Shown here: positions 25,043 through 27,379 of the stretch, one piece after another
How positions within the stretch are numbered: the stretch's first letter is position 1
Layout of the letters: each line of letters starts with the position of its first letter
NCBI RefSeq assembly: GCF_024502345.1
Contig: NZ_JALDNN010000001.1
DNA length: 64,000 nt
Strand: one strand, 5' to 3'
DNA from: Escherichia coli
Lineage (GTDB): Bacteria > Pseudomonadota > Gammaproteobacteria > Enterobacterales > Enterobacteriaceae
Translations under genes and position numbers: made by a program
The notes under the pieces: model-generated
Databases searched by the model: none
Told to the model about the DNA's origin: nothing
The model's input: only the letters and a program-made list of their open reading frames with translations

Positions 25043-25552
25043 AGTGTATTCCTTATTGTTGCTTAGTTAGGGTAGTCACTATATTTGCGACTGAGCTGGT
25101 CGCTATTTTTAACCAGGCTGGAAAATTGAGTCAATATATCGAAAGCGGTAGTCGGCGGGTGTAAGTATGTAATGATGATGCTGCACTGGTGTTGAATATT
25201 ATTCACGCCAAATTTTCCTTATTGAGCAACGTCGTCGCAAGTGGCCTCAATGATTTTAGACCATTATCAGAGATGCGGGGCGGTGGGGAGAGATTTAGTG
25301 ATGTGGAATATTGTGGTGCTGATGAATATTTATATCGCGGATTGGTAGAGAAAAAGGTTATTTCATGCACTATTTTTGCAAAGATTTCTATTTGGGAAGC
25401 GTGTTTGTTACGGGGTAATTCATCAGAATGTGCATTTGGGGTGTTGGCTGGAAGAGTCGCTGGTAGATGTTATTGTGGCAGGAGGGGCAGGGTAAGGTGC
25501 TGTATCGATATGCTTTGGCAATTGCGTGTGCCGCAGATGGAGATGAAATGCC

Positions 25553-25592
25553 AATAAAAAAGCCTGAGTTCGATGAGGGACGAACTCAGGCT
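25553..25592 (-). terminator. Rho-independent terminator downstream of the porin gene
   Basis: Hairpin AGCCTGAGTTCG...CGAACTCAGGCT followed by a T-run on the minus strand, immediately 3' of the porin stop. Confidence 0.6.
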
Positions 25593-25634: not shown

Positions 25635-26750
25635 TTAGAACTGGTAGACGATACCAACTGCAAACTGGTCATCAGCTGCTGCGCCAGTAATGGCGGCGTC
25701 ATCTTTATCCAGCATGTTGAATTTGTATGCAGTATAAACGTTCATGTTCTTATTAAAGTAGTACCAGGTACCAACTTCAATGTAGTTCACACGGTCAGCG
25801 TCAACATATCTATGTCCAGGTACCCCTTTGATATCTTTACCTTTAGAGTACACATAACCTAAGGACGGACGCAGACCAAAGTCGAATTGATACTGAACAA
25901 CCGCTTCAAAGTTCTGGGTTTCATTGATAAGTTGATCACGCATTATTGTATTGCCTTCTCGATCGGCAACACCTGTATCAATAGAACCCGGAGTCATATT
26001 ACGAGTTTCGCCGTACATTACAGCTGCGTAGACATTGTTCGCGTCATACTTTGCAGCCAATGACCACAGTTCAGCATTTGAACCGTTTCCATCGGCAACT
26101 TGATCGTTGGTGCGATCAGATTTGCTATATGCACCAACGATACCAAAACCATTGATGTTATAGTCTACAGACAACGCATAGCCGTCACCATTTTGTTTCT
26201 TAGTGCTACGGTTGCTGTTTTTGCCTTGGTACTGAATCGCAAAATCAAGACCATCAACCAGGCCAAAGAAATCATAGTTACGGTAGGTTGCAACACCGTT
26301 GGTACGACCATTCATGAAGTTGTCAGCGGAAGCCCAGGAATCGCCACCCCATTCAACTAACATATCGGTATAAGCTGCGGCATCATAAGCAACACCGTAG
26401 TTACGGCCATAGTCAAATGATCCTAACTCGTTATATTTCAAACCGGCGAAGGTTAAACGGGTTTTTTCCTGGTTTTCACCTTCGGGCTTGCTGGCGTCGA
26501 GATTGTATTCAAACTGACCAAAACCAGTCAGTTCGCTGGTGATTTGGGTTTCACCTTTAACACCGAAACGAGCATAGGAGGTATCTTCGTTTTCGCTGTT
26601 ATTATCATCAGTATTTGACCAGATGCGTTCGCCAACCATCTTGCCGTAGAAATCAACTTTATTGCCATCTTTATTGTAAATTTCAGCCGCATTTGCTGCG
26701 CCAGCAACTAATAACGCCGGGACCAGCATTGCCAGAACTTTTCTTTTCAT
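25635..26750 (-). CDS. yedS: OmpC/OmpF-family general porin (yedS-like), apparently intact
   Basis: Signal peptide [21 protein letters not shown], the [12 protein letters not shown] start typical of general porins, and a C-terminal aromatic residue (...VGIVYQF). Confidence 0.85.
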
Positions 26751-27379
26751 TATGTATTCCCTTGTGATTATAATCTTCATGAATATATCAATAAGTGCCG
26801 TTATCCAAAAAAAAGCACATTTGGATACTATTCTATGAAGTTCATTTTATTTTAAAGATTACATGTAACAAATGTATTTAAAAGATTTCAAAATGTTTCT
26901 AATCTATTTAATATAATTTAGAATTATGAATTCTAAATATAAATATTCATGAAAATTATAAATGTATATCAATATGTTATGAGTTGAGCGGAAGCATAGG
27001 GGGTATCAATGATTGTTGCGCCAAACGGCTGGTGTGATCACGCGCACATTAATGAAGGCATAAAAAAAAGCCGGCATCATGCCGGCCCAAAAAATATAAA
27101 CAAGACGATAAAAGGCTAATAACGGAGGCATCATGACACAGAAAAATAAAAAGGTATAATTGTATTCAGTGCTAATATATTGATTAAATGAATTAATAAA
27201 GCCGATCTCAAAGATAAATAAAATCGCTCAAAACGATTTTTCCTGTATTCACTGCCGTTGCGCAAAAATTATCTATTTGTTCAAAAAATGAGTGAGTCTT
27301 GACTGGCTCATCCAATGTGGAAAAATGTGACTTTTATCACATAATAGTACTAAGTCTGAATTTTCCGGGTTATCTCAAA

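Follow-up and report, generated by a model that had tools for sequence, protein, structure and literature searches.

An OmpK35-like porin lineage, distinct from K-12 YedS, at the yedS position of Escherichia coli

In E. coli K-12 the yedS locus holds a porin pseudogene, and an uninterrupted porin gene at the same position in another E. coli genome raises the question of whether it is the undamaged form of K-12 yedS or a different gene. The gene considered here lies in a stretch of 64,000 nt (the window) of contig NZ_JALDNN010000001.1 (assembly GCF_024502345.1), in the order hprR-hprS-hchA-porin-rseX-drpB(yedR)-yedJ-dcm-vsr, which is the position of K-12 yedS; the flanking genes hchA and rseX-drpB-yedJ-dcm agree with K-12, as expected from a preliminary description of this DNA that had placed the gene at the yedS locus. 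That description also implied that the gene is the K-12 pseudogene in working order. The comparisons below lead to another answer: the window gene belongs to a separate, OmpK35-like porin lineage that occupies the same slot as K-12 yedS, and is no undamaged version of it.

The gene is a real and complete outer-membrane pore gene, ordinary and already annotated (Table 1). Its 371-aa translation ends in GIVYQF followed by a stop codon and is 100% identical to the RefSeq entry WP_000824355.1, "porin [Escherichia coli]". The mechanical ORF reaches 10 codons farther upstream, to an in-frame ATG at 26780, for which inspection of the sequence found no Shine-Dalgarno sequence; the 371-aa start, which is the one annotated in the closest genome, is favored because such a sequence precedes the ATG at 26750 only. 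Pfam PF00267 (Porin_1) is matched over positions 1-337 of its 337-position profile with 396 bits (cut-off 23.7), and the protein carries both a signal peptide, with cleavage predicted at ANA/AE, and the C-terminal aromatic β-signal (...YQF). The complete precursor with signal peptide and C-terminal Phe proposed earlier is therefore confirmed, with the Porin_1 match running end to end, and the internal loss of a strand or loop that the translation might have hidden is absent: alignment with OmpK35 shows insertions on the side of the window protein alone, and all 16 strands are modelled. The gene very probably encodes an intact porin of the OmpF/OmpC/PhoE family (Porin_1) that looks functional and belongs to the classical trimeric general-diffusion type.

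Table 1. Positions of the porin gene, its parts, and neighboring features in the window
Feature	Coordinates	Strand	Details and basis
Porin CDS (lineage A, yedS slot)	25635..26750	-	371 codons plus stop; ORF and translation, Pfam Porin_1
Shine-Dalgarno sequence AAGGGA	26758..26763	-	7 nt ahead of the ATG at 26750; direct sequence reading
Signal peptide, codons 1-21	26688..26750	-	Aligned with OmpF/OmpC signal peptides
Divergent cassette (mature protein)	25650..26681	-	~55-70% nt identity to K-12/O157 alleles
Loop L3 (constriction), residues 116-152	26295..26405	-	D129, E133, motif VEWGGD; AF2, alignment
Surface loop L6, enlarged, ~residues 254-277	25920..25991	-	Alignments and AF2
Intrinsic-terminator-like hairpin and T run	25561..25592	-	Downstream of porin; 12 pairs
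Porin upstream intergenic region proper	26751..27062	-	27.6% G+C
rseX small-RNA gene	27063..27152	-	Upstream of porin; Rfam RF01401, full-model match
rseX own terminator	27068-27088	-	
Promoter-like hexamers (weak leads)	26871-26844 and 26937-26910	-	Pattern hits
OmpR-box-like core ACATTTTGAAA (weak lead)	26886-26896	-	11-mer pattern match
CRP-type site TGTGATCACGCGCACA	27033..27048	+	Pattern match; between rseX terminator and porin promoter region

One answer to the opening question is that the window gene is the undamaged allele of K-12 yedS, K-12 having gained a stop codon and a frameshift. Such an origin would account for a slot and flanking genes shared with K-12 and for a signal peptide, 5'-UTR, and terminator that are identical or nearly so, but it does not fit the mature proteins. 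Identity between the window protein and the repaired K-12 YedS is 60%, no higher than that to OmpF (also 60%), a divergence comparable to that between OmpF and OmpC, and the mature coding sequences are separated by a saturated synonymous distance (dS ~1.3). In the protein tree, K-12 YedS clusters with OmpN/OmpC, whereas the window protein clusters with OmpK35 and with the syntenic porins of Citrobacter and Klebsiella oxytoca. The motif in loop L3 likewise differs, being PEFGGD in K-12-type YedS and VEWGGD in the window protein. Furthermore, genuine intact K-12-type proteins of 387-397 aa are found in E. albertii and in further E. coli strains, and megablast searches with the K-12 yedS CDS and with the window CDS retrieve separate sets of full-length matches. 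As stated, the undamaged-allele explanation is thus refuted, next to no probability being left to it, and the reading implied at the outset, of a K-12 yedS in working order, falls on the same 60% identity and separate clades. The window gene has the chromosomal position of YedS in the sense of K-12 b4496 and a coding sequence that is not orthologous to it. We refer to the window type as lineage A and to the K-12 type as lineage B.

The window protein shares its fold and conserved constriction residues with the general porins of E. coli (OmpF, OmpC, PhoE, and OmpN), to which it is 57-60% identical, and falls short of all the NCBIfam cut-offs, equivalog and subfamily alike: 417.4 bits against 484 for the OmpC subfamily (NF007841), 449.9 against 583 for the OmpF equivalog (NF007446), and 414.4 against 599 for the PhoE equivalog (NF007544). 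Identity is 57% to K-12 OmpC, which lies in another clade, and 60% to K-12 OmpF. The earlier label "OmpC-family" accordingly stands for the general porin family and not for the OmpC subfamily (417 against 484), the closest solved relative being OmpK35, which stands on the OmpF side. PhoE differs by an additional lysine in L3 (FMTKR), which sets its anion selectivity and aligns with a glycine in the window protein (FMNGR). Citrobacter and K. oxytoca carry the closest foreign relatives, in a dcm-yedJ-(drpB)-porin arrangement.

OmpK35 of Klebsiella pneumoniae (PDB 5o77, 9hn1) matches the window protein with an E value of 8.7e-145 and ~66% identity over the full length (window residues 1-371 against OmpK35 2-360). 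The two agree in the L3 motif LVEWGGD and in the acidic as well as the basic residues of the constriction; OmpK35 differs in an L6 that is 13 residues shorter and a slightly shorter L1. It is also a major expressed porin of OmpF type; the window protein stays below the NCBIfam OmpF cut-off (450 against 583). The ompK35 gene, like ompF, is one that we take to lie outside the dcm-yedJ-drpB/hchA slot. An AF2 model of the window protein (pLDDT 79.7) comprises 16 strands and the L3 segment 116-152 with a short helix; its top Foldseek match is again OmpK35 (5o77, TM 0.92 normalised to the target), and its TM score against OmpF is 0.88-0.89. Residues 140-145 of L3 have pLDDT values below 50, so pore size is not readable from this model. 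L6 is modelled as an extended hairpin (240-262 / 268-287); relative to the nearest allele it has 14 extra residues, and relative to OmpK35 it has 13. In an alignment of 37 porins, K37, R61, R98, R116, Y122, D129, and R149 are invariant and E133 is nearly so. The constriction of the family is recognizable on both sides: the basic cluster K37/R61/R98/R149 occupies the alignment columns of OmpF K16/R42/R82/R132, and the acidic L3 residues D129/E133 those of OmpF D113/E117.

The most likely product is a general-diffusion porin that forms trimers and has an eyelet resembling that of OmpK35. By homology, the precursor would be exported by Sec through its OmpC/OmpF-type signal peptide and inserted by BAM through the C-terminal ...VYQF signal, giving a 16-stranded barrel in which L3 folds inward and D129/E133 would face K37/R61/R98/R149. 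Such a barrel is predicted to enclose a water-filled channel with mild cation selectivity that admits small hydrophilic solutes, β-lactams included. If expressed, it would be expected to act as a high-permeability channel of OmpF/OmpK35 type, because it shares the VEWGGD eyelet with its nearest solved relative, OmpK35, which has the widest pore in a published comparison (PMC7157821). In that comparison, OmpK35 had the largest constriction radius and gave the lowest β-lactam MICs (PMC7157821).

Several other porins serve as points of comparison for the slot and its history. K-12 YedS itself (b4496; named yedS/ompS1 in PMC2731931) resembles the window porin in slot, promoter region, 5'-UTR, signal peptide, terminator, and Porin_1 domain, and differs in the 60% identical mature part, the OmpN/OmpC-like clade, the PEFGGD motif, and the length of 387-397 aa. 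The same paper equates K-12 yedS with ompS1 (PMC2731931). Salmonella OmpS1 is a low-expression porin of the same family, silenced by H-NS/StpA and activated by LeuO and OmpR, and its regulation, with AT-rich, H-NS-silenced upstream DNA, is the best available model for the window locus. The protein itself probably belongs to lineage B, since names given by the sources place "OmpS1" on lineage-B proteins of E. coli and Citrobacter, and the relatives listed for the window protein, which extend down to 63% identity, include none from Salmonella. A genome scan with a lineage-B query had no Salmonella among the best 80 matches listed, and in a protein search with a Citrobacter lineage-B query the matches listed were dominated by Citrobacter clusters. 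OmpK37 and OmpK38 of K. pneumoniae, which are distinguished by synteny, are additional, normally minor Porin_1 genes that alter β-lactam permeability once dominant (PMC7157821); they are OmpC/OmpN-like and nearer to lineage B, with narrower modelled pores, whereas the window protein is OmpK35-like. For K. pneumoniae L034, in the syntenic dcm-yedJ slot, the top PDB sequence match is OmpK37 (E 1e-158).

An open reading frame could also be open by chance, the gene being a cryptic pseudogene that lost function through missense changes or promoter loss. K-12 and O157 carry lineage-B copies that have become pseudogenes, and no confident promoter was identified in the upstream DNA of the window gene, as this explanation would have it; the coding sequence nevertheless bears the marks of constraint. 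The window gene shows an overall dN/dS of 0.12-0.24 against other alleles, and within lineage A the ratio in barrel and L3 is 0-0.06 in comparisons with the alleles of NDM1, E. fergusonii, and Citrobacter and 0.11-0.15 in that with the Nissle-type allele (for L3, 0-0.03 and 0.15, respectively). Every pore-lining and folding residue is conserved, the identical protein recurs across many genomes (its RefSeq cluster has 1321 member sequences), and the regulatory region is 95-100% identical to that of K-12 in 100-base windows, with all 120 bases from -80 to +40 relative to the start the same. A cryptic pseudogene is therefore a very improbable account of the window gene.

Divergence between alleles of the slot is confined to the mature coding part. 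Sliding identity, base-level boundaries, and codon windows place this divergent segment between stretches of near-identical DNA: promoter, 5'-UTR, signal peptide, and terminator are ~97-100% identical across the two lineages, so that the mature coding part behaves as an exchangeable cassette. A comparison of hchA adds to the evidence that the flanks are conserved. The signal peptide is the same in 8/8 E. coli alleles from complete genomes, both lineages included, and shows no synonymous divergence (dS = 0) from alleles with dS >1 in the mature part. Mosaic alleles, such as that of MS20653, are present. Lineage A coding sequences (at least 80% coverage) were found in 1623 of 5426 complete E. 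coli genomes (~30%), and at least four coding classes share the slot within the species (1623, 1141, 1662, and 366 genomes). One or the other of two ancient porin lineages can fill the yedS slot, both in E. coli and in further members of the Enterobacteriaceae. An origin of these lineages from an ancestral tandem pair finds no support: E. fergusonii carries two porins in the slot, but the signal peptide of the second is of another kind, and its identity to each porin compared is just 51-62%.

How such diversity is maintained admits more than one explanation. We tentatively suggest, as a possibility well short of an even chance, that two lineages older than the genus (dS >1), together with sub-lineages and mosaics, are kept as a cassette-like polymorphism under balancing or frequency-dependent selection, which would make the type of reserve porin strain-specific. 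Phages, colicins, immunity, or antibiotics would be the selective agents, both lineages would alternate at the slot in Citrobacter, Klebsiella, and Escherichia species, and the promoter, 5'-UTR, and signal peptide would be shared and homogenised, the terminator being shared as well. The reserve types contrasted in this polymorphism would be a wide OmpK35-type and a narrower OmpC/OmpN-type channel. In the searched literature mentioning "yedS", no description of a long-lived cassette polymorphism at this locus was found.

An explanation that we regard as similarly doubtful keeps the frame intact and the gene effectively silent, and lets it matter as a phage, colicin, or antibody receptor that is polymorphic by frequency-dependent selection, with no permeability route. 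It would be in line with the four or more coding classes in one slot of one species, with mosaics of the MS20653 kind, and with the AT-rich regulatory DNA. Replacements and indels also gather in the extracellular loops, where dN is 0.21-0.60 as opposed to 0.03-0.27 in the barrel. Likewise, the decay of the K-12 and O157 homologues and the removal of the slot by IS1 in another strain suggest dispensability. A dN/dS above 1, however, was not seen in any part, the loops included, where the ratio is uninformative because synonymous sites are saturated and power is low. Moreover, the strong purifying selection on L3 and barrel shows that the channel as such is being preserved, something that a protein serving as a receptor alone would not require. 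We know of no phage or colicin that uses the window porin, and a receptor role is in any case compatible with porin function and no exclusive alternative to it.

Expression of the window porin is most likely low or conditional, in the manner of a "quiescent" reserve porin, given that its AT-rich upstream region adjoins rseX, which is silenced by H-NS/StpA in K-12 (PMC8313858), and contains a CRP-type site. A quiescent state would parallel what is reported for K-12-type yedS and Salmonella ompS1. K-12 yedS(ompS1) is repressed by σE (PMC2731931), and ompS1 is subject to H-NS/StpA silencing that is relieved by LeuO (PMC4264507). The likeness to the quiescent porins OmpS1/OmpS2 and E. coli OmpN is circumstantial, and consists in the 27.6% G+C upstream (49.8% across the whole window) and the adjacent rseX that is silenced in K-12. 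The rseX gene of the window scores 96.7 bits with Rfam RF01401 (gathering score 50, E 1.9e-13), its neighborhood is near-identical in sequence to K-12, and the K-12 annotation likewise places it between drpB and yedS; a small RNA next to a porin gene recalls micF by ompC and micC by ompN. An AT-rich upstream region belonging to the porin had been proposed for 26751-27300; the AT-richness holds, whereas sole ownership does not, since rseX and DNA upstream of drpB lie within it. The proposed downstream terminator was found as a 12-pair hairpin followed by a T run, conserved at 97% with K-12.

Regulatory motifs in the upstream DNA are of unequal weight. Promoter-like hexamers occur at chance level (8 hits against 6.9 expected), and the OmpR-like core occurs once against 0.11 expected, with a match in 11/100 shuffles as well, the pattern being taken from the reference OmpR box. 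Both are weak leads. For the CRP-type site, the homologous K-12 site at 2033766, ggTGTGAtcaggcGCACAtta, is entered under yedS in an in-vitro footprint table (PMC12871828). We read this footprint as a probable CRP site because the sequences in the table fit the CRP motif (PMC12871828). At the level of translation, RNAduplex pairing of MicF 1-35 with positions -80..+40 of the window gene gives -11.2 kcal/mol, and 334/500 dinucleotide shuffles are as good, whereas the ompF control gives -27.4 kcal/mol with 0/500. Warner et al. reportedly described, in 2013, control by MicF of a functional YedS that affects carbapenem susceptibility. Direct MicF pairing at the translation-initiation region of the window gene is unsupported, the predicted duplex being no better than shuffles. 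The pairing test was confined to that region, and MicF may act indirectly or pair elsewhere.

An intact porin at the yedS position is a common state in E. coli, annotated in RefSeq, and matters little by itself; a publication of 2013 is said to have already presented a functional YedS with an effect on carbapenem susceptibility. What matters more is that at least two porin lineages go by the name "yedS", and that these are as distant from each other as OmpF is from OmpC and differ in eyelet motif and surface loops. Conclusions on permeability, MicF control, and receptor function are therefore not transferable between strains by name, and resistance pipelines that score "yedS intact or disrupted" miss the type of channel. 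If the polymorphism outlined above is real, "yedS" in resistance genotyping would merge functionally different channels. The OmpK35-like eyelet suggests that lineage A, if induced in ompF/ompC-deficient clinical strains, would increase β-lactam entry. Finally, with its sharp cassette borders and mosaic alleles, the locus offers a compact natural case of allele replacement in a surface protein.

The porin gene of the window is flanked by hprR-hprS-hchA on one side and by rseX-drpB(yedR)-yedJ-dcm-vsr on the other. Since this is exactly the gene order around the yedS pseudogene (b4496) of Escherichia coli K-12 MG1655, the placement of the gene at the yedS position in the preliminary description is confirmed, as is the downstream terminator. 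The mechanical ORF extends ten codons further up, to an in-frame ATG at 26780 (-), which yields 381 aa; the ATG at 26750 is the better start because it has an AAGGGA Shine-Dalgarno sequence and is the annotated start in the closest genome. Within the hchA-porin spacer, a 122-aa GTG ORF (25189-25557, +) lies opposite the porin terminator, and a short "hypothetical protein" is annotated in the homologous spacer of some RefSeq genomes (loci L017/L018, the former from strain MB64), probably as an annotation artefact. On the other flank, drpB, a neighbouring gene for cell division, carries annotations of a frameshift in O157:H7 (L003 5072-5352), an internal stop in FY26 (L016 2541-2822) and a split in MB64 (L017 2657-2951).

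Features of the porin locus in the window
Feature	Position	Strand	Remarks
Porin coding sequence	25635-26750	-	371-codon open frame, C-terminal GIVYQF-stop
Shine-Dalgarno AAGGGA	26758-26763	-	7 nt upstream of the 26750 ATG
Terminator-like hairpin	25561-25592	-	12 pairs, then a T run; 3' of the porin gene
rseX sRNA gene	27063-27152	-	Rfam RF01401, 96.7 bits, full model; directly upstream of the porin
rseX terminator	27068-27088	-	rseX's own terminator
Candidate CRP-type site TGTGATCACGCGCACA	27033-27048		pattern match

The open frame encodes a complete 371-aa precursor, as first described, and the protein covers the whole Pfam Porin_1 profile (396 bits, positions 1-337 of 337). A search of solved structures gave Klebsiella OmpK35 as the nearest relative (E 8.7e-145), in an alignment that spans residues 1-371 and whose only gaps reflect extra residues in the window protein (two in loop L1, thirteen in L6). 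An AlphaFold2 model built from a 37-sequence alignment (pLDDT 79.7, pTM 0.77) predicts the 16 strands, with a short helix in the L3 segment; its top PDB match is OmpK35 5o77 (TM 0.92, target-normalised), followed by OmpF structures. The OmpF constriction residues K16, R42, R82 and R132 align with window K37, R61, R98 and R149, the acidic D113 and E117 with D129 and E133, and R100 and Y106 with R116 and Y122, all eight being invariant or nearly so among the 37 sequences. Given the full profile match, the OmpK35 alignment, the 16-strand model and the retention of all constriction residues, there is no hidden deletion of a strand or loop of the kind for which an alignment check had been proposed. 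The gene is intact and selectively maintained, and its product is a porin of 16 strands whose eyelet is canonical.

It is not, however, the K-12 yedS gene in working order, as the preliminary description had implied. After conceptual repair of the K-12 pseudogene (one stop, one frameshift), YedS and the window protein share 60% identity, the same as OmpF and the window protein (60%), with slightly lower values for OmpC (57%), PhoE (58%) and OmpN (58%) and higher ones for OmpK35 (66%), a K. oxytoca porin (73%) and a Citrobacter porin (77%). Neighbour-joining trees place K-12 YedS, together with its intact relatives, beside OmpN and OmpC (lineage B), whereas the window protein clusters with Citrobacter, Enterobacter, Leclercia and K. 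oxytoca porins, OmpK35 being the next branch (lineage A). Correspondingly, the window lineage shares with OmpK35 the eyelet motif VEWGGD, in contrast to PEFGGD in K-12 YedS, OmpF, OmpC, PhoE and OmpN. Together, the identity, the separate tree groups and the differing motif rule out a functional form of the K-12 pseudogene. The label "OmpC-family" is right in a broad sense only, because the protein scores below the cut-offs of the NCBI curated models for OmpF (450 vs 583), OmpC (417 vs 484) and PhoE (414 vs 599).

The DNA around the gene tells the two lineages apart far less. When the entire intergenic-to-intergenic region was aligned with K-12 and O157 in 100-base windows, identity was 95-100% per window upstream of the porin (100% in the 5'UTR and over the codons of the signal peptide) and, past the stop codon, 88-100% (97% in the terminator), but only about 55-70% over the mature-protein codons. 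At base level, perfect identity holds to the end of the signal peptide, at about 26682, and is back at the last 14 nt of the CDS (VYQF-stop).

Within E. coli, the 21-residue signal peptide is identical in 8/8 alleles extracted from complete genomes, which fall into both lineages.

Porin alleles at the yedS position
Lineage	Length	Strains	Identity to window protein
A	371 aa	window, NCTC9082	100%
A	357 aa	NDM1	90%
A	352 aa	MS20653	81%
A	352 aa	Nissle 1917, FY26	68%
B	387 aa	LR-45	62%
B	395 aa	ST70	61%
B	397 aa	MB64	61%

Of the lineage-B copies, those of K-12 and O157 are pseudogenes and those of LR-45, ST70 and MB64 are intact; some database entries of this lineage are 405 rather than 395 aa long, apparently from a start at the upstream ATG (window equivalent 26751-26780 (-)). 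In a CDS-only megablast of 5426 complete genomes (coverage 80% or more), the window-type query matched 1623 genomes (446 at ≥99% and 456 at 95-99% identity), the Nissle type 1141, the K-12 type 1662 and the LR-45 type 366, the four together covering nearly all of the 4911 genomes that carry the flanks. The slot usually contains an intact porin. In at least one strain, Res13-Lact-PEB21-38-A, an IS1A copy (L021 2248-2945) stands in place of the whole hprR-hprS-hchA-porin-rseX segment, from hiuH to drpB. A window-type porin at 99.7% identity also occurs in a 4.83-Mb assembly labelled "DH5alpha" (H43, NZ_CM135829.1 147346-148401), whose label or strain identity looks wrong, since a lineage-B pseudogene is what a K-12 derivative should carry.

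Relative to the window allele, synonymous divergence amounts to 0.50 for the 357-aa type, 1.39 for the Nissle type and about 1.3 for lineage B, and the signal-peptide codons of these pairs show none. Overall dN/dS is 0.12-0.24; in the barrel and L3 it is 0-0.06 against the NDM1, E. fergusonii and Citrobacter alleles of lineage A and 0.11-0.15 against the distant Nissle type, while the extracellular loops hold most replacements and indels. To judge from these comparisons, such values and loop-concentrated change fit functional genes, not decaying ones. The main alternative emphasis would place the gene's importance in a variable surface target rather than in a permeability route, a reading compatible with porin function and not exclusive of it. 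The MS20653 allele (L020 834-1892) is a clean mosaic: over its first 165 or so codons it matches the window allele at 97-100% identity, and the remainder follows the Nissle type in its per-window identity profile, the aligned protein being the same residue for residue from about residue 163. This indicates intragenic recombination between sub-lineages.

The alternation extends across species. Outside E. coli, the porins closest to the window protein sit at dcm-yedJ-(drpB)-porin in Citrobacter and K. oxytoca, and at vsr-yedJ-drpB-porin in E. fergusonii, where dcm is absent from the locus. Among the matches listed, lineage-B relatives (76-86% identity) are found at this slot in E. albertii, C. 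werkmanii, C. youngae, other Citrobacter and Superficieibacter, and its occupants in Enterobacter, Buttiauxella, Kluyvera and K. pneumoniae are OmpN/OmpC-like porins that are more distant. The dcm-yedJ-slot porin of K. pneumoniae ATCC 13883 (L034 5001-6143) matches OmpK37 best among PDB sequences (532 bits), then OmpK36 (484 bits), and is presumably OmpK37 or OmpK38, two OmpK37-like genes defined by synteny (PMC7157821). The pattern could be accounted for by a tandem pair in an ancestor, and E. fergusonii does carry a second Porin_1 gene (L103 5663-6772; 369 aa) in tandem after its lineage-A porin; this porin has a different signal peptide (MKKLTVAVSAVAASILMAMSAQA) and reaches only 51-62% identity to any porin of the comparison set, which leaves such an origin unsupported.

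The supposed "own AT-rich upstream region" (26751-27300) is indeed AT-rich (27.6% G+C over 26751-27062) but contains rseX, annotated at the same place in K-12, and is not one regulatory region. An sRNA gene likewise adjoins ompC (micF) and ompN (micC). Promoter-like hexamers upstream of the porin (26871-26844, 26937-26910) are not above chance for this composition. An 11-mer resembling the core of an OmpR box occurs once (26886-26896; 0.11 expected), a candidate that serves as a lead only. MicF reportedly controls functional YedS, according to Warner et al. 2013; computation did not bear this out at the start region of the window porin, where the best MicF duplex (-11.2 kcal/mol) falls within the shuffle distribution, the ompF control reaching -27.4 kcal/mol with 0/500 shuffles as good. 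From -80 to +40 the gene is identical to K-12 (120/120), so any factor acting there acts on both lineages. The K-12 yedS counterpart of the candidate CRP-type site is listed as an in-vitro footprint (PMC12871828). A perfect CRP-type palindrome (TGTGACTTTTATCACA, 27326-27341), distinct from that site, lies some 60 nt before the start of drpB. The K-12 yedS(ompS1) mRNA drops upon sigmaE induction (PMC2731931), rseX is under H-NS silencing, StpA serving as a back-up (PMC8313858), and in Salmonella LeuO relieves the silencing of ompS1 by H-NS/StpA (PMC4264507).

As a member of its family, the porin would be exported by Sec, cleaved after ANA, inserted by BAM via its terminal Phe and assembled into trimers, allowing passive diffusion of small hydrophilic solutes with a mild cation preference. 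Its channel may be relatively wide, like that of its nearest relative OmpK35, which has the largest constriction radius of the compared porins and the lowest beta-lactam MICs (PMC7157821). The genomic context suggests that expression is low or conditional.

RefSeq lists an identical protein as "porin [Escherichia coli]" (WP_000824355.1), in a cluster with 1321 member sequences. Since the slot is usually intact and a functional YedS has been reported by Warner et al. 2013, the finding as first noted is known and ordinary. No description of two lineages or of a cassette was found in the searched literature mentioning yedS. Judged on sequence, "yedS" is a slot name covering two porin lineages that differ as much as OmpF does from OmpC and that are apparently swapped as a cassette of mature-protein codons, with the regulatory DNA in common. 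This correction is modest but real, and has practical consequences for carrying results between strains.
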